From Nitrososphaeraceae archaeon (GTDB taxonomy: Archaea > Thermoproteota > Nitrososphaeria > Nitrososphaerales > Nitrososphaeraceae): a stretch of 64,000 bases of DNA. The notes below the pieces were generated by a model, which ran no database searches, was not told where the DNA came from, and saw nothing but the letters and a program-made list of their open reading frames with translations. The position numbers and the translations under genes were made by a program. How positions within the stretch are numbered: position 1 is the stretch's first letter; each line of letters opens with the position of its first letter. Below are positions 3,320 through 38,357 of the stretch, piece after piece. Location of the stretch: positions 96,001 to 160,000 of the forward strand of contig DATGZA010000014.1 in assembly GCA_035297365.1 (NCBI GenBank). The letters are read 5' to 3'.

Positions 3320-3509
3320 ATCATAGTCCCTCTACAAAATTTGGTAAAATACTCCAATTTTTGGATAAAATATCTTTTGCGCAATATTAAATACACAAAC
3401 TTCTGGCAGAAGGAGATATATGTAGTTTCTTACAATATTTAAAATTTATTTTGGTTATTAATAATAAATAATACGTAGGTATATTTGATTGCAAATAATG
3501 AAAGAAAAA

Positions 3510-3605
3510 GGCCTTCGGAGGGATTTGAACCCTCCTCAAGCGGTTTCTATCTTTTGTAGAAAAGACCACAGCCGCCTATACTAACCAGGCTATACTACGA
3601 AGGCC
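3510..3605 (-). tRNA. tRNA-His(GTG) with 21-nt intron at position 37/38
   Basis: Reverse complement gives acceptor GCCTTCG/CGAAGGC with encoded G-1 and C73, anticodon arm GGCGG-CTGTGG^A-CCGCT, T arm GAGGG-TTCAAAT-CCCTC, intron 3545-3565. No encoded CCA. Confidence 0.95.
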
Positions 3606-10221: not shown

Positions 10222-11258
10222 TGAAAATGATTTTTAATGATTCAGGTGAAAAACTAGGTTTAGGAATAGAAAGTACTGCTCACACTTTCGGTTGTTCGGT
10301 AATAAAATTTAAGGAACCACAAAAAAAAGGCGAGATTCTTTCTGAGGAAAGGGGTATATATAAAGCACCATCCGGCTCGGGCATTCATCCGAGAGAAGCC
10401 TCAAGACATCACATGAACAAGGCACCAGAAATCTTGAGAAATTGTTTGAAAGAAGCAAAAGTTACTCCTAAAGAACTAGATATCATTTCATATTCTGCCG
10501 GTCCGGGATTGGGACCGTGCCTAAGAGTAGGAGCGGTTGTAGCAAGAACTCTTTCATCGTTTTATAATAAACCATTAATTCCAGTCAACCATGCTTTAGG
10601 ACATATTGAATTAGGAATGATGTTAACTGAATGCAAAGATCCTCTAGTGTTATTGGTTTCTGGAGGCCATACAATGATTTTAGCATTCTCAAATAAGCGA
10701 TGGAGAATTTTCGGAGAAACACTAGATATAACAATTGGACAATTATTAGATCAATTTGGCAGACACATGGGGCTTTCTTCTCCATGTGGAAACAAAATAG
10801 AGGAATTAGCATCGCATTCATCAGGAGAATACATTCAATTACCGTATTCAGTTAAAGGAAATGATGTGTCTTTTTCGGGCCTTTTGACTTCTACGAAATG
10901 CCTTATTACTGAAGGTAAAAATGAATTTGATGTATGTTTTTCCTTGCAAGAAACTGCCTTTGCTATGTTAACAGAAGTAGTTGAAAGAGCATTATCTTTT
11001 ACAGGAAAAAAACAAGTGTTAATAGTAGGAGGTGTCTCGGCAAATAAACGTCTACATGATATGTTGGAACAGTCGTCTGAAAGGCAGAAAGCAGAATTAA
11101 GATCATGTCCTTTAATATACTCAGGTGATAACGGATCACAAATTGCATGGATAGGTTTATGCGAGTATCAGACTAGAGGAAAAAAAACAGATATCAAAAA
11201 ATCTTTTGTTAACCAATCGTGGAGATTGGATTCAGTCGATGTTAATTGGAGAACCTAG
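10221..11258 (+). CDS. kae1: KEOPS t6A synthase Kae1
   Basis: LGIESTAHT, GIHPREA, GPGLGPCL, NHALGHIE, VSGGHT, DNGSQIA. Confidence 0.96.
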   Translation: MKMIFNDSGEKLGLGIESTAHTFGCSVIKFKEPQKKGEILSEERGIYKAPSGSGIHPREASRHHMNKAPEILRNCLKEAKVTPKELDIISYSAGPGLGPCLRVGAVVARTLSSFYNKPLIPVNHALGHIELGMMLTECKDPLVLLVSGGHTMILAFSNKRWRIFGETLDITIGQLLDQFGRHMGLSSPCGNKIEELASHSSGEYIQLPYSVKGNDVSFSGLLTSTKCLITEGKNEFDVCFSLQETAFAMLTEVVERALSFTGKKQVLIVGGVSANKRLHDMLEQSSERQKAELRSCPLIYSGDNGSQIAWIGLCEYQTRGKKTDIKKSFVNQSWRLDSVDVNWRT

Positions 11259-28904: not shown

Positions 28905-29189
28905 GTGAGCTAGAGCGCGAGTTACTCATAATGAGAGGAAACTCCTCCCTCATAGCAGGCACCCAAATTAGCGATAATTAGCTGGAGACAGCTGGCAACG
29001 TAACAGAAAAGCTATCTAGAAGAGTCTATATATCTGTGATGGTTAATCGCCTGAGATCCCCTTACCTAGAATGAAACTGACGACCTGGGTGGAGCAAGGC
29101 CAAAACGAGTTATAATGTTCCTGCACTTACTCAGGTTGGCCGCTTAGCGAAATCTCGCATAAACAGAAGGAGGGTTATTCCTAGCACAC
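28905..29189 (+). ncRNA. rnpB: RNase P RNA
   Basis: GAGGAAACTCCTCCC near the 5' end and ACAGAAGGAGGGTTA near the 3' end (P4 pseudoknot); internal ACAGAAA, TGAAAC and GAGCAAG elements; P1 GTGAGCTAG/CTAGCACAC. Confidence 0.93.
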
Positions 29190-29192
29190 TAT
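29173..29192 (+). repeat. attL core, GGTTATTCCTAGCACACTAT (3' end of rnpB)
   Basis: Exact 20-bp copy at 36178-36197. Confidence 0.9.
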
Positions 29193-29247
29193 ACCTTCAA
29201 ATGAGTGTTCTGGGCATATTTTTTTATCATACCTCGATAAAACAAGA

Positions 29248-29790
29248 TTGTCTTACCAATTGGCAACAATATTAGAACAAGAAGAAAAGCAAGAACTAGA
29301 AAAAAGGATAGATTCAATCACCAAATCTTGTAAGCCCTTTATCAATAAAATGTTAAAAAATTTGACAGATAAGAACCCAGAAAACGCCAATAATATCTGT
29401 GACTATATAATTGCTGAACAAACAGAATTCAATATCAAAGATTCTACCAAGATTGGAAAGATAAAAGCACTTGTATATTTATCACGTTTCTGTAATGATA
29501 AAAATTTTAAAGAGATGACAAAACAGGATATTTTGGATCATCTTAATACTTTTAGACCTCACGATCATAATAATAGCAATAATAATCAAACTTCTGCTAA
29601 TAACAACAAGTGGATCGGCACCTACAATTTCAGACAGATGATCTTTGGCAAATTCTTTAGATGGTTATACAATCCTGATGAAGCAGATCCAACCAAGAGA
29701 GAAAAACCAGATTGTATGAAAGGAGTCAGAAAGTTACCAAAAAAAAGAAAAATCATCATACAATTCTGGTGATATCTGGGAAATCATCAG
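29248..29790 (+). pseudogene. tyrosine integrase N-terminal (SAM-like) fragment; frameshifted, catalytic domain absent
   Basis: NANNICDYIIAEQTEFNIKDST, FKEMTKQDIL..LN, KWIGTYN, KFFRWLYNPD, KPDCMKG. Removing one A from the A8 run at ~29739 continues PKKEKSSYNSGDIWE, then similarity ends. Confidence 0.75.
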
Positions 29791-29794
29791 AGAT

Positions 29795-30553
29795 TTGTAT
29801 TCTGAAAGTGGTAGAATGCTAAGGAATCAAACTAGAACTTATCCACGATATAAAACAACAGATGAATTAATCTACGAAGACTTTTACTCAAAAGTCTGTG
29901 ACGTTTCTACAGGCACATTTTGGGCAAGAAAAGATTCACATGGAAATATTATTCCTAAAAAAGATGGACGTCCTAACTGCGACTATTATGTCAGTACAAT
30001 AATTAGGCTTAGAACTATGTCAGGTGACGAATTCTTGTATAGCCAAGGCAACATCATTGGTTACGATGCAGCAGGTCAAGAATGTAGATTGTTTATATCA
30101 AAGCCTGAAGCATATCTAATGACTTTATTTGATATGCATAGAGTATATGATAATGAAACAAAAATCTTTTACGAAACGTGCCGTGGTCCAATGGAGACTT
30201 ATGACGAGTATGAATTACCTTTCTCACCAAAAAATGTCCAACTATTGTATGAAAAGAGGAATAGATCAAGAAATGCAAAACCAATCCAATTTATCGTAAA
30301 AGATGAACAAACAGGTATGGATGTCGTTGTTAGATGGTCCAGTGTTGAAGATACTTTGAAACTATTCAAAGAGAAAGACTTTTTGTATCTTTACAACGGA
30401 AATTATATTCCTCAACCAGTAAAGGAAGAAATGAGAATTAGGGCTCAGGCATTGACAGGAGGAGAACAACAGAATATGGGACCAGCAACCAATCCAGCAA
30501 CTAACGTTAACTATCATAGCAATAGCAATAAAGAGATTAACGCATATTGCTAA
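29795..30553 (+). CDS. hypothetical element protein
   Basis: 252-aa ORF abutting the integrase remnant; possibly 5'-truncated. Confidence 0.75.
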   Translation: MYSESGRMLRNQTRTYPRYKTTDELIYEDFYSKVCDVSTGTFWARKDSHGNIIPKKDGRPNCDYYVSTIIRLRTMSGDEFLYSQGNIIGYDAAGQECRLFISKPEAYLMTLFDMHRVYDNETKIFYETCRGPMETYDEYELPFSPKNVQLLYEKRNRSRNAKPIQFIVKDEQTGMDVVVRWSSVEDTLKLFKEKDFLYLYNGNYIPQPVKEEMRIRAQALTGGEQQNMGPATNPATNVNYHSNSNKEINAYC

Positions 30554-30687
30554 TCTATTTTTCAATTAATCAAAGATAAAAAGATGTGATTTCCTCTGGA
30601 ATTTGTATTAACCTGAGAGGAGGATATTTCACAATCCAGTTATTAATATTGAGCGTGAGAGAGGTCTCAATCAATGAATGGCTTAGG

Positions 30688-31601
30688 TTACTGAGACAAT
30701 TTATCTAACACTAAAATTACAATAGGAACAATAATTGATATAATAATTTCCAAAGAGATTCTGGTGTTTCTTGAAGTTGTTTCAGTTACGCATTCATTCT
30801 CTCTTTTCAACACTTTAATAATTTCTTGATATGGTAATAATTTATTACTGGTATCTCCAAAGGATTTAGTTAAACTTAATAATAAATTACTATCGCTTGA
30901 ACTTAATATTTTATCATATAAACAGTTCATTGATCTAATTTTTATAGTAAGGTTTTGTTGAAGGAATTTTTGGTAATATACTAAACCTTGAACCAAATAT
31001 TTTAATTTTGTATAAAAATCTTGTTTTCTATTAATAGAAAGAATATAGACTCTAGCGATGTTATAGTAAACAAACTCATTCCTTGGGACTAACATTACCA
31101 AAAAAGCGTTGTAAAACCAGAAGAGAATATGATGATAATCTGAAGTACAAATGAGGCAACATTCTTCAAATCCATTCCGTTTAGGAGAGAAAATGAAAAT
31201 GAGAACGGGTCAAATAAGGAATTATTTAATATAAAATAAAGAGTAATTGAAAATAGAAAAATACCTAGAGATGTATAGAATGCATGTCGTGCATAATTGA
31301 TCGCTAAAATTGTAAAGGACTTTTCTAAATAAAAATTACTTAATTCATCATCTGTAATAGGATCTGTAAATAATTTGCTAATTTTAGAACTCAGATAAAC
31401 ATGGGGAAAAATAACTACGTCCAAGATAATAAGAAATAAAATCGCGAAATCTACATCTTTTGAAACATGAGGATAACCTGAATAAAAATAAAAATTTACA
31501 GATATATATATATGATCATAATATTGGTTAAAATAATACCAGTTAAAAGGAAGATAAACGTTTTATCTCTCTTCATGTTAAGATAAAATTTGAGAATCCA
31601 T
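30688..31601 (-). pseudogene. disrupted membrane-protein gene
   Basis: ATG at 31601 is in frame with ORF 31095-31424 but followed by two TAA codons; frame change at a T6 run (~31101-31106) into ORF 30688-31101; hydrophobic segments. Confidence 0.55.
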
Positions 31602-32028
31602 TAATAAACTAAATTATTGCAATAACTTCAAGATTTTTTAGTTGATTTTTTTATTTAGTTTTTGTTAATGTGGTATCTCTTGTTGCTTTTCGAGATAAGC
31701 GCATTTATGCTTCTTCTGCTTGTGCAATTCCCAATATTCTCCCTTAACAGGATTCCAGTAAATGACAGTATCGCACCTTTGATATTGTGAAGATACAACT
31801 GATAATACATAGATATTGTTGGCAAATACGATCAAAATTAATAGGGCAAAACATGATGAATTATTTTAGTAGTAAATGACTAGGAAATTAAATTTATCTT
31901 ATTATAGAACTTTTTTAATATTACTCGTTGATAATTTCACTTAACATTGAAGATAAAAATTACTTCAATCTTTGTAATCATACTCGCTTCGAGTATAACT
32001 TTTTTTTCGTTCACTTCTACTAAAGTAG

Positions 32029-32304
32029 ATGCGCAAAATAGTTAGTACAGTAGAACTCTTTACAGAAGAGGATTTAATATTTCTTGAGAGAGTGGGACTC
32101 GAAGTATCTGATTTTACTGATAAACAGATAAGAGAGATTAAACAACCATCGCCGGATGCACATGAAGAAAGAATTAAAGCCTGTATGGATATGAAAAATA
32201 CAAATTTTATTGCTGGTGATATAGAATGTGTAACTTGGACACTTTCAGCAGAGGCAAGTTACAGGTTGGCACAATGGGCTATTCAGCAAACTCTTGATGA
32301 ATAA
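32029..32304 (+). CDS. hypothetical protein
   Basis: 91-aa ORF with ATG start. Confidence 0.6.
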   Translation: MRKIVSTVELFTEEDLIFLERVGLEVSDFTDKQIREIKQPSPDAHEERIKACMDMKNTNFIAGDIECVTWTLSAEASYRLAQWAIQQTLDE

Positions 32305-32361
32305 ATAAGATCATTCAGAATCCATCCAATGCCTAAAATTTGTTCGAATCAATTTTCCTAG

Positions 32362-32889
32362 TCATTCATTAATGTATTCTTCTATGGATTCATATTTTTT
32401 ATTCATTTCTGATGGTGTAGGGAATTTTGCTTCATATGAAATTCCTTCATTTAATTTATCGTACTGTTGTCTATCATAGTCACCTTCTATGCCTAGTAAA
32501 GAACATGAAGCGAGCAAGCCGAGATGTCTATCACACACTAATAGTGCAAGTCCTACTGCCCCAGGACATTTCCATTCATTTTCTTTACCAGATTTGGAAA
32601 TGAAAGTTACTGTATTATCCTTTATAACATAACCATCTTCGCCTATACAGTTTTCATGAATTAATTTTATCTGTCCACTCAATTTTTTATCCATTTCGGT
32701 AAAATCTGATAACGACATTCTTAGCAATTTTTCATCTGCATCTTTTTGATCTATTGTAAAAGTTTCATGTGTTGCTTCGACTAACGTAATACTATTAGTT
32801 TGAAGTACAAATGAAAATAATATAAAAAATACAAATATTACTATTGAATTTAGACAGAAATAAAACATAAATAATAAAAATTGAGACAT
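32362..32889 (-). CDS. hypothetical exported/membrane-anchored protein
   Basis: Hydrophobic N-terminus, several Cys. Confidence 0.6.
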   Translation of the reverse strand: MSQFLLFMFYFCLNSIVIFVFFILFSFVLQTNSITLVEATHETFTIDQKDADEKLLRMSLSDFTEMDKKLSGQIKLIHENCIGEDGYVIKDNTVTFISKSGKENEWKCPGAVGLALLVCDRHLGLLASCSLLGIEGDYDRQQYDKLNEGISYEAKFPTPSEMNKKYESIEEYINE

Positions 32890-33115
32890 GCTATTATATT
32901 AAAATATCTGTAACTTGTAATTTTTTTCAGGTTAATTAAATATCCATGAAATATATTAATCATTCTCATTACTGGTTAATTTATCGACTTCGATTTTATT
33001 ATTAAGTCTGGAAGTTATAAGACATCAAAGTTTTGCTAGTGTATTATTAGTTTGAAGATATTTAGAATCCAATTTAATGACATAAATCAATAAACATTGT
33101 AAAAACCAACATAAT

Positions 33116-33550
33116 TTAAAGTGGTACTATAATCCTTTGTGGTTCTCCAGATGCAGTTGGAGTTGAATAGGCTATATTACATTTAATAGATTGACTGAAA
33201 CTTTGAGTACCTAGTTCTATGACACAAGCATAAATTTCAGATCCTGGTTCCACAGGTTCATTCATAGTAATTGCAACATCTATCATTTTATCTGGAGAAA
33301 AAGATTCTTCCTGTCCTGCTTGAATAACTGCTTTGGAAACATCAACTTTTTTTACTTGAACCTCGTTTTCACTGCTCAAAAGTGCAATTAGATTAGTCTC
33401 TGTAAATGATGATATTTCTCTTATGTTTATAATGAAGTTATTAAGGCTTGTAGTAGTTTGATTAACTTCCTGACCATAAATATTTGGCACTGTCATGCCA
33501 GAAACGAAGGTTAATACCGCACAAATGATTGGAAAAATTATTATTTTCAT
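33116..33550 (-). CDS. hypothetical secreted protein
   Basis: Signal-peptide-like MKIIIFPIICAVLTFVSG...YGQ; beta-rich body with a Cys pair. Confidence 0.7.
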   Translation of the reverse strand: MKIIIFPIICAVLTFVSGMTVPNIYGQEVNQTTTSLNNFIINIREISSFTETNLIALLSSENEVQVKKVDVSKAVIQAGQEESFSPDKMIDVAITMNEPVEPGSEIYACVIELGTQSFSQSIKCNIAYSTPTASGEPQRIIVPL

Positions 33551-33710
33551 CTAAAATCTGAATCTAATCCAATCTTTTAAGGATATCGAAAAAATTGAGT
33601 TTCAATTATTTATGTTATATTTGCGATACTCTTATGCAATTATTTGGTAGTAGACATTATAATAATATAGGTACAAAAATAGGATAAATATTTTTAGTTA
33701 TTATTTTACA

Positions 33711-33917
33711 TTAATATTCTTTCGTTCGCATCCAAAAATGACCGTTAGTACAGCAAAAACTTTCCTCTAAGGGGGGTACGTAATCAGATTTTACATAATT
33801 ACCATTTTCATCATAATGTCCTCCAATTGTTTGAAAATAAGTCCTCCAATCAATAGGATATACAAGACTTTTTAAACCAAGTTGTTTACACGTATTACAA
33901 ATAACTTTATCTTCCAT
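33711..33917 (-). CDS. small zinc-finger-like protein
   Basis: CNTC...CTNGH. Confidence 0.65.
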   Translation of the reverse strand: MEDKVICNTCKQLGLKSLVYPIDWRTYFQTIGGHYDENGNYVKSDYVPPLEESFCCTNGHFWMRTKEY

Positions 33918-34073
33918 AATTCGTTATAACTATCGCTAATATATTAGGTAATTGCTTTATCGAGGGATAGAATATAGTTTAATACTAAATTTCTGAAACT
34001 TCCTCTTCATCCTCTTCAATATCATTATCATTTTGAATATTAGTATTATCATAAGTAGTAGAAGAACTCATTT

Positions 34074-34253
34074 CTAGTTGTAAGATTTGGTATTCTCCAG
34101 ACTTGTATAAGTTATCGGAGGTGTAGTTTTATAATTAAATCTGATACCACAAACTGGACAGATTGTAGATAGCATATAATCGTTGTAAGAGTCAGTTTCT
34201 ATGATTTCGTTACATTTTGGACATATAGTGAAAGGTTTGCTAGGATTGGTCAT
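34074..34253 (-). CDS. small zinc-ribbon protein
   Basis: CPKC...CPVC; ATG 34253 sits at the same module position as the ATG at 34971. Confidence 0.65.
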   Translation of the reverse strand: MTNPSKPFTICPKCNEIIETDSYNDYMLSTICPVCGIRFNYKTTPPITYTSLENTKSYN

Positions 34254-34452
34254 TTCTGTTTCTTCCCTTACTATCATAAAAATCCAGTAGTCTATTCATT
34301 ATCTCGTCAACAGATTCTACTTTCCCATATCATACACTGTTTCCCTTCATTCTTTCAAAAGTCTCATTTTCTATCTGAATTAATTTCCCTTCTTTTATTT
34401 CCTCTACAACTCTACCCAACCAGCCGCCACGTAACGGACCACGACCACCCAT
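34240..34452 (-). pseudogene. RHH-like small regulator, copy 1, with in-frame TGA
   Basis: MGGRGPLRGGWLGRVVEEIKEGKLIQIENETFERMKGNSV*YGKVESVDEIMNRLLDFYDSKGRNRNDQS. Confidence 0.6.
34265..34370. repeat. 106-bp identical direct repeat, copy 1
   Basis: Identical to 34984-35089; weaker similarity extends a further ~120 bp. Confidence 0.95.
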
Positions 34453-34545
34453 ACAAAGAAAATAAAAGAAGATTAGAATAAAAGTATATTTAAAAAATTA
34501 TATTGCATATAAAAAAAATATTAAATATTTAATAAAATTGAAATT

Positions 34546-34971
34546 TTATTTAACATCTGATAGGTCATTTTTGATTTTGATCATATCAATACACTTTCTA
34601 ACCACAATATCAGAGAAGTAATCTTCTTCTATCGCTTTATCATTAAAATGACCTGTTTTATCTAATTCAGCGAAAACTTCCAACAATAATTTTCTGCCCA
34701 AATCAGTATATTTATAGAATTTACCCCTACCTTCTTTCGCATCTTTCAGAGAAGCTGCTATACAATACCAACGACATTTTTCATCAATGTATATTCTTCT
34801 ACTACCTTCCTTACCGCCCTGTTCGAATACAAATTCAATTACCTTATTACGCTTAGGGTCCAGAATTATTACCTGACCTTCTTCATCCAGAATTACCTTA
34901 CCTTCTTCATACAGAATTACCTTACCTTCTTCATCGTTATTGTTATTATTGTCGTTGTCTCTAGTAGTCAT
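34546..34971 (-). CDS. hypothetical protein with N-terminal tandem EEGKVIL repeats
   Basis: 141-aa ORF; 24-bp tandem unit at 34861-34935. Confidence 0.7.
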   Translation of the reverse strand: MTTRDNDNNNNNDEEGKVILYEEGKVILDEEGQVIILDPKRNKVIEFVFEQGGKEGSRRIYIDEKCRWYCIAASLKDAKEGRGKFYKYTDLGRKLLLEVFAELDKTGHFNDKAIEEDYFSDIVVRKCIDMIKIKNDLSDVK

Positions 34972-35168
34972 TTCTGTGATTTCCCCTTACTATCATAAAA
35001 ATCCAGTAGTCTATTCATTATCTCGTCAACAGATTCTACTTTCCCATATCATACACTGTTTCCCTTCATTCTTTCAAAAGTCTCATTTTGTATCCTAAAT
35101 AATTTTACATTTTTTGTTTCCCCAACTCTACGCAACCAACCCCCACGTACTACTACAGGACTCCCCAT
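34968..35168 (-). pseudogene. RHH-like small regulator, copy 2, with in-frame TGA
   Basis: MGSPVVVRGGWLRRVGETKNVKLFRIQNETFERMKGNSV*YGKVESVDEIMNRLLDFYDSKGKSQK; terminal TGA overlaps the next ATG (ATGA). Confidence 0.6.
34984..35089. repeat. 106-bp identical direct repeat, copy 2
   Basis: Identical to 34265-34370. Confidence 0.95.
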
Positions 35169-35427
35169 TAAATAAAACAAAAGAAGATTACGATAAATAT
35201 TTTTAGTTAATTACTATTTATTTCTAAATTCAGAAAATAAATACTAAAAAGTGGGGTCGGAGTACTCGTGACACCCTGGAGAGACAAACAACAACAACAA
35301 GAAAAGGAATCTATCAGAACCCTAAACGATATAGAGATGGCAGAAATCGAGGCAGAGGACTATAGAACCCAGCGACTAACCTACATGGAAGACGATTATT
35401 CCTTTTAGTTACCAGTGAATTGCCACA

Positions 35428-35670
35428 ATGGGAAGACGTAGACTACATAGGCCCACACTGACAACGATCAACATTTCGGTAGATACTGCAGAGATAATAG
35501 CAAGGATCAAGCATAGCAGGGAAACACAAGACGGATTTATCCGTAGACTGTTAGCAGAATGGGATGACCTTAAAGACTACAGGCTGGACATGGACCAAGT
35601 TATCAAGGTTAAGGATAAGCAGATATTGACGCTGGAAAATGAACTGAGGGAAAAAATCAAATCCTTTTAA
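35428..35670 (+). CDS. RHH-like DNA-binding protein with C-terminal coiled coil
   Basis: TTINISVDT...ETQDGFIRRLL, followed by heptad-like tail. Confidence 0.65.
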   Translation: MGRRRLHRPTLTTINISVDTAEIIARIKHSRETQDGFIRRLLAEWDDLKDYRLDMDQVIKVKDKQILTLENELREKIKSF

Positions 35671-35697
35671 TTTTATATTTATATTTTACTTTATTTT

Positions 35698-35903
35698 AAT
35701 TAATTAATTAATCTATTATTTTTCAAGTACGCAATTTATTATTTTTTGTATATTATAAAATAAGTTTATTAATGTGTCTAGATTTATATGATCTTAGGTC
35801 CTATTCCATAGTCTACTATGGAGTAAGAGTAAGAGTCTTCAGTTTCTATCTATCTATTTTAATATAATTATTCAATAATAAAAAATAGATTAATTAATTA
35901 ATT
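35698..35903. repeat. 20-bp inverted repeat enclosing a palindrome
   Basis: AATTAATTAATTAATCTATT (35698-35717) and its reverse complement (35884-35903); TCCATAGT-CT-ACTATGGA at 35805-35822. Confidence 0.8.
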
Positions 35904-36177
35904 TATTACTCTAGCGATATTCTGAAATGTAAAATCAGGATTTTCAGTAATGCCGGAGTAGAAAGTGGTTGACAACACTTTCTTCGTTCCGGACTAAGTC
36001 GCGAGTCACAAATTATGAAGTCGGTAATGTAATTACGATAAAGTCGTTTATCTTCATTTATAATAGGAAATATTTAGATGTATATAGATCTAAATATCCA
36101 TTTGACGTATTACCGTCATTAGTCAAACGGATTGCTCTAGCGATATATTTGACTGGAACACTCATGCGATGCTAAAA

Positions 36178-36197
36178 GGTTATTCCTAGCACACTAT
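36178..36197 (+). repeat. attR core (duplicate of the rnpB 3' end)
   Basis: GGTTATTCCTAGCACACTAT. Confidence 0.9.
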
Positions 36198-36330
36198 CAA
36201 TGCCAATGAACGTTCTCAGATCTATTTTTGATGATTAATTTAATGATGGTAAAATCCTATCAAATCATAAAGATGATCAGACCTGATGATATGGTATTTA
36301 AGTTTGAAACATCAATCTTTTGACAAATAC

Positions 36331-36348
36331 TTATTGCCAGCACACTAT
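36331..36348 (+). repeat. degenerate third att copy
   Basis: TTATTGCCAGCACACTAT, 16/18 identical to the core. Confidence 0.6.
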
Positions 36349-36587
36349 TGATAACAAGCGAGTTCAATGTAATTTGACTAACGATAGAAATCAAGGCCAA
36401 AAAAAAATAGACTTGATTCGTAATTTCCATTTTTTAACTTGTTTTGTTATTTTATAATATTTTTATAACTAAAATTATAAACAAGTTATGTTTAGATTTA
36501 TAGAAAATAATTTCTATCCTTATAAAAGACGAGATACAAAATTAATATAATCTTGGATTAATATTTTTATGCTATTTGAATATGGAA

Positions 36588-38357
36588 TTATTTTGTAACT
36601 ATTAACATCAATACTATTATTCCAAATGTAACAACTAAGAATATCTTAGTCAAATCCATAGACTTATCTAAGGCCCTTGAATAATCTTGAAATTGACCAT
36701 TACCCATAACTTTAATTGATGTTTTGCTGTCTAATATCTCGTATTTTGCATTTTTGATTTTTTCTTGTGCTTCAGATAAGATATAAATAAAATATTTTGT
36801 TGCCTGTTCAAAACTTGTAATTTCTCCAAATGGAAAATATCCTTCGGAAGTCCTAAATCCTGAATTTTCATGAGTATCAGAGGTACAAATATCTAACAAT
36901 GTAATGTCCTTTTGTTCAAGATCCTTAATAATATGTTCTCGCAATCCGTTTTTCATATTATTTGAATCTATCCAACCAATAAAATATTGTTTATCATGAA
37001 TTTGAATCATAAATATGGATATTCCTGCTTTTCCTAGATCTTTATTATTTATGTCACTTTGGATTTCTCTTGTACTAGAATAACTTATTTTAAACTCCGA
37101 CTGAGGAGAATTTCTTAGATTTCTTAAGCAACTTTTTGCAGCATTTACCATATTATTTCTGCTTATTTCCTCTAGTTTTTTCCCCATAGCATTATGACTA
37201 TCTATTATTAAAATCTTGTCAAAACCAATTTCTTTTGAATATTTCTCTAATTCAATTAATATATTTTCGGGAACATCATCCATACCAACGGGTGAATTGG
37301 ATAAAATTATAAGAGGTACTTTTCCAAATGCAATTCCAGTACAAGTGGAACTTCCATTTGTTACCCTTATAGGCGTGGAACAAGTAGTTCCATTTTGGAT
37401 TATATTATATGTTGATAAAGATTCTAAATATTTTACAACCTCTTCATTAGATGGAATATTTAACGAATGATCCGAAACACTATGAAATACGATTGATTTA
37501 TAATCATAGTATTCCCAAATTCTAAACGATAAATTACTTCCTCCTATTGTCTTGAAGGGTCCTGGATGTATATCTGGTAATACTAAATTTATATTTTCGA
37601 AATCATCGCCAAACCTAACAATTCTAGTAAATACCGATGCGTCTCTGGATTTAGATATCAGAATCTTTTCAATATCTTCAACTTTATTTTCTGTCCAGGC
37701 AGACATAAAAGCTTGTAAGAGAGAAAAAGTACTTTGAATATATGGACGACCTGATCTATCTACTAATATAGCCCATGCTATCCCTAAACCTAATATAATG
37801 AAGCCAAAACAAATGGGAATGGGGTCTGTCAGCTCCTTAAATGAATTTAACGGAGTTATGACAAAAAATAAGATGGAAGGTTGATATATTGCTGTTTTTA
37901 TTGCTTTTTTTAGGCCTGCTCCAAAAACTGATGTAAATATACCTATTCTTAACCCAATTGCTACCATCATACCTTCTATTATATGTCCAATAGGAATATT
38001 GTCTTTGTTGAAGATCATGTATGAGACTATACCCAGAATTAAAATTGCCATCCAAAGAAGATTTGAAAATGCTGAAACATGGAGTACCTTGGAAAACTTG
38101 TTGACAGGCGTATCACGCAACAAATAAAAATCTAAAAAATAACTACAAATTAAAAAAGTTAAACCCAATATAGAATAAATGATAATATGAGCTGAATCCT
38201 GTAGAAAATAAATTTCTGTTAATATAATAATTAACAGTGAGCTAATTATAGATATTGTTAAGGAAATCTTATAAGATGAAAAGTTTATTCTTATGAAAGA
38301 CCATCTTTTGTGGATATTAGAAACACTATCATGGTCCTCTCCCATTAGATGAGCCAC
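36588..38357 (-). CDS. DUF2070-family membrane protein
   Basis: N-terminal TMs; HPGPF..IGGSNL, DSHN, DSNNM, TSDTH. Confidence 0.88.
   Translation of the reverse strand: MAHLMGEDHDSVSNIHKRWSFIRINFSSYKISLTISIISSLLIIILTEIYFLQDSAHIIIYSILGLTFLICSYFLDFYLLRDTPVNKFSKVLHVSAFSNLLWMAILILGIVSYMIFNKDNIPIGHIIEGMMVAIGLRIGIFTSVFGAGLKKAIKTAIYQPSILFFVITPLNSFKELTDPIPICFGFIILGLGIAWAILVDRSGRPYIQSTFSLLQAFMSAWTENKVEDIEKILISKSRDASVFTRIVRFGDDFENINLVLPDIHPGPFKTIGGSNLSFRIWEYYDYKSIVFHSVSDHSLNIPSNEEVVKYLESLSTYNIIQNGTTCSTPIRVTNGSSTCTGIAFGKVPLIILSNSPVGMDDVPENILIELEKYSKEIGFDKILIIDSHNAMGKKLEEISRNNMVNAAKSCLRNLRNSPQSEFKISYSSTREIQSDINNKDLGKAGISIFMIQIHDKQYFIGWIDSNNMKNGLREHIIKDLEQKDITLLDICTSDTHENSGFRTSEGYFPFGEITSFEQATKYFIYILSEAQEKIKNAKYEILDSKTSIKVMGNGQFQDYSRALDKSMDLTKIFLVVTFGIIVLMLIVTK

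Follow-up and report, generated by a model that had tools for sequence, protein, structure and literature searches.

The window, that is the whole stretch of 64,000 nucleotides analysed here from a Nitrososphaeraceae archaeon, contains the gene for RNase P RNA (rnpB), and the 3' end of this gene recurs about 7 kb downstream, at the far end of a block that opens with the remnant of a tyrosine integrase gene. We describe this block as the decayed remains of an integrative element that very probably used rnpB as its chromosomal attachment site (attB); attL and attR denote the left and right copies of the attachment core, and the features of the locus are collected in Table 1.

The match of rnpB to the Rfam model RNaseP_arch (RF00373) covers model positions 1-288 of 288 and scores 165.7 bits (E 2.6e-47), the gathering score being 84. 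Since Rfam places the end of the gene at 29189, the exact 20-nt repeat GGTTATTCCTAGCACACTAT is composed of the last 17 nt of rnpB followed by three nucleotides (TAT), and rnpB itself is intact, as a preliminary description of this DNA had proposed. The core starts with GGTT, which closes the 3' strand of P4, given as GGAGGGTT, and we take it to extend from the end of this strand through the 3' strand of P1. Within the window no third match to the repeat was found at up to two mismatches (0.00 expected from 100 shuffles), and the whole genome assembly (G000; 2,522,110 bases in 110 contigs) contains the same two copies only, with up to two mismatches allowed; a chance or dispersed repeat was thus ruled out. 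The block has the layout of an integrative element, with direct repeats at both ends, one of them within the target gene, and with the target gene left intact.

The surroundings of this block are those of a conserved host locus. A tsr3-type gene stands upstream of rnpB at all 17 genus loci covering that side, and the neighbours (the Tsr3-type gene and a helicase on the left; DUF2070, SUI1 and TFB on the right) are kept around rnpB in the genus. In one relative, G014, whose rnpB is 98.6% identical to that of the window and whose flanking proteins are about 93-96% identical, tsr3-rnpB joins at once to the sequence found right of attR in the window, which gives a precise empty site. Past rnpB the first 58 nt, repeat included, are 94.8% identical and the next 428 nt 92.8% identical, these two aligned blocks being separated by an additional 231-nt piece present in G014 only, and the DUF2070 gene of G014 ends 623 nt from rnpB. 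Soil-metagenome contigs from two of four runs (X5 and X7, from two studies) likewise join position 29172 to 36178, skipping 7005 nt with 20 letters that fit both sides, while contigs of run X2 carry the occupied form and span both junctions. Stretches of the element that lack cover in X5-X7 carry no weight in this comparison. The empty site anticipated by the preliminary description was therefore found, and the genes at 29-36 kb are not syntenic core genes, the block being absent from G014 and from the X5 and X7 junction contigs.

The integrase remnant is a 174-aa open reading frame (ORF; 29248-29772) that starts 56 nt past the attL core. It matches the Pfam family Phage_int_SAM_4 weakly (E 0.014, under the cut-off), in the manner of a SAM-like N-terminal domain, and is 64-80% identical to homologs linked to rnpB, compared with 41-60% to homologs linked to tRNA genes. 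The remnant retains only the part that matches residues 1-78 of P0001, the integrase frame of the related genome G019. At a run of A (about 29735-29750), reading of the sequence suggests that the homology continues for a few codons in another frame and then gives way to unrelated DNA. Neither a working integrase of its own nor an excised circle was found for the window element, which holds this N-terminal remnant only; the window copy is a fossil, a dead remnant.

Table 1. Features of the rnpB locus and of the integrated element (positions are those of the window)
Feature	Position	Strand	Basis or remark
Left host flank: tsr3-type gene, 168 aa	28376-28882	+	Pfam Ribo_biogen_C, 137.2 bits
rnpB, complete, 3' end rebuilt by the element	28905-29189	+	Rfam
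attL core: final 17 nt of rnpB + TAT	29173-29192	+	exact 20-nt repeat, 2 copies in G000
Element-side arm right of attL: motif GAGTGTTC (29203-29210), then T7 run (29219-29225)	29203-29225	+	read from sequence
Tyrosine-integrase remnant; 174-aa ORF 29248-29772, N-terminal domain only	29248-29785	+	homology
Cargo: orphan ORFs of both orientations, among them one of 252 aa (29795-30553) and small zinc-ribbon-like ORFs	29795-35408	.	no family match
Internal duplication in cargo	34330-34452 / 35049-35180		repeat of 258 nt, 83.7% identity
Small gene conserved in the element family, pointing at attR; product of 80 aa with N-terminal GRRR and a long C-terminal helix	35428-35670	+	
Stretch with copies on other G000 contigs, common to the G017 element arm; 14+14 palindrome at 36070-36097	35867-36097	.	
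GAACACTCAT, inverted partner of ATGAGTGTTC (29201-29210, opposite arm)	36156-36165	+	read from sequence
attR core: partial copy of the rnpB 3' end	36178-36197	+	exact repeat
Right host flank; directly after rnpB in the empty site	36198-36587	.	alignment to G014
Right host flank: DUF2070 membrane-protein gene	36588-38357	-	Pfam PF09843, 367.8 bits

Integrases downstream of rnpB

Counting G000, 22 genomes of the genus gave an rnpB hit. In G008, G015, G016 and G021 less than 130 nt of contig follows rnpB, and the assessable set consists of the other 18 genomes, which have more than 1 kb of contig past it. An integrase remnant lies right after rnpB in 11 of these 18 (G000, G001, G004, G009, G012, G017, G018, G019, G020, G023 and G024, the match being weak in G004), with a weaker trace in G011; no integrase was detected after rnpB in G002, G005, G007, G013, G014 and G022. 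Where rnpB and the DUF2070 gene share a contig, they are 0.62 kb (G014) to 10.9 kb apart. Four elements have an attR copy: it is exact in G000 (element of 7.0 kb), carries one mismatch in G017 (10.46 kb), is exact over 18 nt in G018 (3.08 kb) and carries two mismatches in G012, where another arm and another integrase fragment come after the element of 7.26 kb, in tandem.

Intact integrase genes next to rnpB were found in metagenomes. Four contigs (L104, L106, L107 and L108) have rnpB directly before intact integrase genes of 477, 495, 476 and 484 aa, the products being 84-90% identical to P0001, and on a further contig (L123) the integrase gene after rnpB runs off the end. P0001 itself, with 422 aa, matches Phage_integrase (PF00589) with 28.1 bits for a cut-off of 27.1 and adds a zinc ribbon; the three metagenome proteins that were scanned score 28.0 (L104), 26.5 (L106) and 26.5 bits (L108), the latter two just below the cut-off. 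Seven positions, R214, K246, Y337-x-x-R340, H359, W362 and Y372 in L106 numbering, are invariant in 13 intact family members and, read as a motif, would correspond to the tyrosine-recombinase catalytic set R, K, Y-x-x-R, H, W and Y. Further features of the integrases are a zinc ribbon at the C-terminus and a coiled coil. Through these full-length relatives, the earlier assignment of the ORF at 29248 to integrase N-terminal domains is supported, and so is the expectation that other rnpB loci would carry integrases. As a separate observation, the frames of G019 (L037) and G001 (L036) have a frameshift near residue 85 of the window ORF, where the metagenome versions run in one frame, which may point to a common break or to an assembly error.

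The integrase family is multi-copy in the genus, with matches in 22 of 25 genomes. Paralogs of 41-69% identity lie directly downstream of tRNA-Ser(GCT), tRNA-Val(TAC), tRNA-Ser(GGA) or an intron-bearing tRNA, or of 3' fragments of the latter, always on the same strand as the upstream tRNA. In all rows the match to residue 1 of P0001 starts 255-525 nt past the RNA gene, nearly all of them falling within 322-445 nt, and likewise at rnpB. A quick maximum-likelihood tree built from 46 sequences, full-length or long, places all seven rnpB-linked rows in one clade of 11 with a support of 97 in the Shimodaira-Hasegawa-like approximate likelihood ratio test (SH-aLRT); tRNA-linked rows are absent from this clade, which lies nested among tRNA-linked clades. 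Two of its remaining rows, L105 and L112, are contigs without the upstream part. A tree of the N-terminal parts groups eight rnpB-linked rows with one row of unknown target (SH-aLRT 94), and places the window copy with those of G017 (next to it), G009, G023 and G012. Sorted by target, the rnpB-linked rows thus group together, inside a tRNA-targeting family, an outcome in favour of the preliminary description.

The same description had proposed an integrase lineage specialised for rnpB in the Nitrososphaeraceae. The trees uphold an rnpB-linked clade, for which recombination activity and specificity are predicted. It was found in one genus only, the family-wide part of the proposal being dropped: among sampled loci, rnpB-linked integrases turned up neither within about 1.5 kb at 13 from other families nor within 2.5 kb downstream at 46 from 15 other genera of the family (tblastn, E <= 1e-3; 4 of the 46 stretches measured 0.4-2.0 kb).

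Two further observations concern the tRNA-type relatives. The positions C12:33265-34666 and C9:51029-52046 of G000 hold a distant integrase (about 26% identity) right after tRNA-Thr(CGT) and a heavily broken paralog; before the latter stands a 3' fragment corresponding to the 3' end of tRNA-Val(TAC) genes. In the G017 element (L034), a fragment resembling a tRNA 3' end (GGGTTCAAATCCCGA...) lies at about 10480-10510, near the right arm, and may be a leftover attachment copy of a nested tRNA-type element.

Junction geometry and use of the site

Junctions were aligned on the GGGTT of the RNA gene, which belongs to the 5' strand of the T-arm in tRNA and to GAGGGTTA in rnpB. A second, element-borne nGGGTTC stands at columns 35-39, that is 33 nt further on, in tRNA-linked and rnpB-linked junctions alike; column 35 is G in 33 of 34 rows, and columns 38-39 are TT in at least 30 of 34. 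In the window this site is the GTGTT of GAGTGTTC, 33 nt past the GGGTT of rnpB and in the register of both kinds of junction. When at most one mismatch is allowed, 16 of the 21 genus loci of rnpB and all four metagenome loci have the motif in register, compared with 2 of the 46 control loci of the 15 other genera and none of the 13 loci of other families. Four of the five genus misses have the motif displaced by small indels, and the fifth, G014, has GAACGTTC at the same register; given this degenerate motif, the right flank could possibly be the relic of an older element, even in the empty G014. For rnpB the identity block begins with GGTT; in five internal tRNA-type attachment copies its start is at GGTT or one base before. 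One rnpB junction type has an arm, GGATGGGTTCTAC, closely similar to the arm GGATGTGGGTTCTAC of the sister tRNA clade. On the opposite side, an arm of the form GAACnCT..TGyGATG is kept left of attR in all four elements having an attR copy. Four loci of another genus of the family (g18; L131, L132, L133 and L136) have an inverted repeat, GGGATTCA(A/C)A...TGAATCCC, from about 5 nt after rnpB, which looks like a native hairpin and is out of register with the element motif.

We consider it highly probable that positions 29193-36197 of the window (7005 nt, one repeat copy counted) represent a decayed, immobile integrative element whose enzyme was a non-suicidal tyrosine integrase, encoded by a gene kept whole beside attL. 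The junctions suggest that the integrase reads GGGTT-type sites at a fixed spacing. It would bind the 5' strand of the T-arm in tRNA and, in rnpB, GAGGGTTA at the end of P4, together with the second GGGTT(C) site that the element brings 33 bp further on. The resemblance of the P4 end to a T-arm may have made rnpB a usable pseudo-site, so that one sub-lineage of a tRNA-specific ancestor would have switched to rnpB. The element would in turn supply rnpB with a new 3' trailer and T-run: its T7 run stands 30 nt after rnpB, compared with a T5 run at a similar distance in the empty site, and could serve as a replacement terminator. A broader proposal, which we put forward as possible and judge to fall slightly short of probable, is that this is the first recognised integrase clade, in any domain of life, whose natural attB is rnpB, and that it arose from tRNA-specific ancestors because the P4 end (GAGGGTTA...) mimics the T-arm sequence GnGGGTTC, the geometry being kept (core from GGTT, second GGGTT 33 bp away).

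The alternative that keeps most weight, which we nevertheless hold to be unlikely, is a single ancient integration into rnpB in the ancestor of the genus, followed by vertical inheritance and erosion, with no lineage still targeting rnpB and with the insert lost from G014. All genus loci with enough flank do have element-like sequence after rnpB, most integrases there are remnants, and even the empty flank of G014 carries the degenerate in-register motif; a single event leaves aside, on the other hand, the intact integrases behind rnpB in the four metagenome contigs, the tandem arrangement in G012 and the attachment repeat of the window, which is still exact. Two junction types exist, matching two integrase subclades, and on a quick tree of flanking host genes they are interspersed among close relatives (G013 with G023; G005 with G019 and G001). 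The elements of G000 and G017 share only their ends, which are 74-82% identical compared with 93-94% for the host flanks, and their interiors are unrelated. The interspersed junction types and the unrelated interiors therefore favour repeated integration or replacement over a single ancient event. Comparison of these loci thus favours a site that has been used repeatedly in the genus, with most copies, that of the window included, having probably lost their integrase later; the G000 and G017 elements may stem from one event or from two.

The opposite polarity, in which the 7-kb block would be native and G014 and the metagenome variants would have deleted it between chance 20-nt repeats without any integrase, is very improbable. 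An empty site by itself does not separate insertion from deletion, but one copy of the repeat forms the exact 3' terminus of a conserved RNA gene, with an integrase remnant 56 nt away, the layout recurs with different inserts in other genomes, and the block is devoid of conserved host genes, the shuffles moreover having given no second 20-mer. Finally, an SSV-type suicidal integrase, split on integration, would account for the fragmentary ORF beside attL, yet it can practically be dismissed, as this ORF starts after the core and does not span it, the intact genes of 476-495 aa lie wholly downstream of rnpB when integrated, a second integrase piece is absent from the attR end and from the rest of the window, and the truncation reads as a frameshift followed by loss of homology.

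Several points weigh against the interpretation of an element inserted by an rnpB-directed tyrosine integrase. No integrase catalytic domain occurs anywhere in the window, and the mobility of this copy cannot be demonstrated; nor do the 22 rnpB-bearing genomes of the genus contain a fully intact rnpB-linked integrase, G019 and G001 sharing a frameshift and the genes of G012 and G024 being broken. Assignment to the tyrosine recombinases depends on Pfam scores lying at the cut-off together with the conserved residues: a profile match to the PDB is weak (XerA, 4a8e, E 0.028), a single-sequence search of the PDB with the integrase returned nothing, and an AlphaFold model from 13 sequences is poor (predicted local distance difference test, pLDDT, of 57), including across the catalytic part. 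The integrase trees are quick searches with SH-aLRT and without bootstraps. Two members of the rnpB clade, L110 and L113, have upstream sequence showing neither rnpB nor a tRNA, and a strict clade of the eight rnpB-linked rows is absent from the best N-terminal tree, where it is not rejected by the approximately unbiased (AU) test, applied to this set only (p 0.168). In the register comparison, the anchor of the rnpB rows was chosen after the motif had been seen. The empty-site contigs of X5 and X7 differ from the window at several positions; what they record is polymorphism among close relatives and not excision, their source possibly being a G014-like strain. No circle junction (attP) was detected among the contigs of the four runs, contigs being a weak test that cannot show absence.

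Cargo and the small gene beside attR

Apart from the integrase remnant and the small gene described below, the ORFs of at least 60 aa in the window element match no Pfam, PHROG or PADLOC family above threshold, and the largest of them, of 252 aa, has no match in the protein atlas. The internal duplication of the cargo yields two small ORFs that share their C-terminal half (...ETFERMKGNSV). The cargo had been described beforehand as orphans, ribbon-helix-helix (RHH)-like genes and pseudogenes: the orphans stand, while an RHH-like nature of the small gene at 35428-35670 was neither confirmed nor excluded, its product matching Pfam DUF7557 at E 0.012 and its monomer model being all-helical, with two helices and a weak N-terminus.

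This small gene is a recurrent component of the family. The G017 and G018 elements have homologs of it near attR, and others occur in the tRNA-type elements L076 and L114 and on contigs C105 and C68 of G000; on contig L110 a homolog with an internal stop is found upstream of the integrase gene and on the same strand, an order that matches the one expected across attP in the free form. We propose that the product may be a regulator or a directionality factor, a role that would suit a gene standing just upstream of attP and the integrase gene in the circle. On L110 itself (201-2782), neither rnpB nor a tRNA lies between the small gene and the rnpB-clade integrase, and the contig may represent either the free form, with attP, or a further switch of target; the gap contains a short inverted repeat, GGATAACCACGCATTATCC.

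Just inside attR, the stretch of about 230 nt at 35867-36097 has copies on the G000 contigs C27 (86%), C11, C35, C68 and C60. A 16-nt direct repeat, ATT(A/G)CTCTAGCGATAT, brackets it at 35905 and 36131, and the CTCTAGCGATAT motif also occurs upstream of the integrase on L110; in other runs, breaks in metagenome contigs are seen at about 35889 and 35921. The stretch may be an insert resembling a miniature inverted-repeat transposable element (MITE), or a conserved arm of the element family.

No virus hallmark (capsid, terminase or portal) was detected by PHROG or Pfam in the window element or in 10 ORFs of related elements, and the integrase has no relative among IMG/VR contigs, on which grounds a viral origin was rejected. 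Related elements encode an insertion sequence (IS) transposase, a DUF1326 protein and proteins with weak P-loop matches. The right label is that of a cryptic integrated element. Elsewhere in the window, the sole tRNA gene reported by ARAGORN is a tRNA-His at 3509-3605, which at 97 nt is long for a tRNA and may contain an intron.

Relation to known systems and significance

Thaumarchaeal integrated elements with tyrosine integrases have been surveyed by Krupovic et al. (2019; PMC6563490), with a median attachment site of 17 bp and with 68 sites distributed over 39 tRNA genes, 15 intergenic positions and 14 protein-coding genes. The present elements share with them the phylum-level hosts, a short attachment site (20 nt here) in the 3' part of a stable RNA gene, an integrase gene beside one attachment site, cryptic cargo and tandem arrays, and differ in that the target is rnpB and not a tRNA. 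The terms 'RNase P', 'rnpB' and 'Nitrosocosmicus' are absent from the main text of that survey, among whose 15 intergenic sites an rnpB site could nevertheless be hidden. The text of the review by Badel et al. (2021; PMC8371274), devoted to non-suicidal (pNOB8-type) archaeal tyrosine integrases, contains neither 'RNase P' nor 'rnpB', and its section on targets covers tRNA genes. As in the pNOB8-type described there, integration leaves the integrase gene whole, attB belongs to an RNA gene and the element rebuilds this gene; unlike in that type, the proteins have a C-terminal zinc ribbon and a coiled coil, and their similarity to solved archaeal recombinases is marginal. SSV-type integrases are likewise archaeal tyrosine recombinases inserting into RNA genes, whereas there the integrase gene contains attP and is cut in two by integration.

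Outside the archaea, the closest parallel is provided by bacterial elements at ssrA (tmRNA) or ffs. A 2025 article (PMC12540744) presents ffs (4.5S RNA) as a novel RNA attachment site, used by phage phiEf11, and the known RNA targets listed in its text are tRNA/tmRNA and csRNA, not rnpB. Both kinds of element use a conserved, essential and structured RNA gene as attB and duplicate its 3' end, but the domain of life, the integrase family and the RNA are different. No published report of rnpB as an attachment site was found in the full-text literature, supplements and subscription literature being outside this scope, and an earlier mention is possible. In the examined papers combining rnpB with attachment or integrase terms, rnpB appears as a marker gene or in the reference list only; PMC7921747 mentions the RNase P RNA only in a gene count, and PMC12884075 contains none of these terms. 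What is new here would therefore be the target: elements with a tyrosine integrase that occupy the 3' end of stable RNA genes are a known kind, and rnpB as their target appears to be new.

This target has a practical consequence for the detection of genomic islands. Finders anchored on tRNA or tmRNA genes cannot see rnpB elements, as the preliminary description had pointed out for those anchored on tRNA genes, and resources of the TIGER/Islander type, in which sites are sorted into tRNA/tmRNA, protein-coding and intergenic in the text of PMC12424338, would probably file them as 'intergenic'.

With these elements, the RNase P RNA gene would join the short list of stable RNA genes that serve as chromosomal attachment sites. 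One integrase family with one junction geometry, extending from tRNA-Ser, tRNA-Val and an intron-bearing tRNA to rnpB, would offer a natural series for studying how the target of an integrase changes. We know of no genetic tools for ammonia-oxidising archaea. An integrase with a defined and universally present attB could become such a tool for soil Nitrososphaeraceae and, if the reading proposed here is true, the intact members from soil metagenomes would constitute a ready-made integrase/attB pair for ammonia-oxidising archaea.

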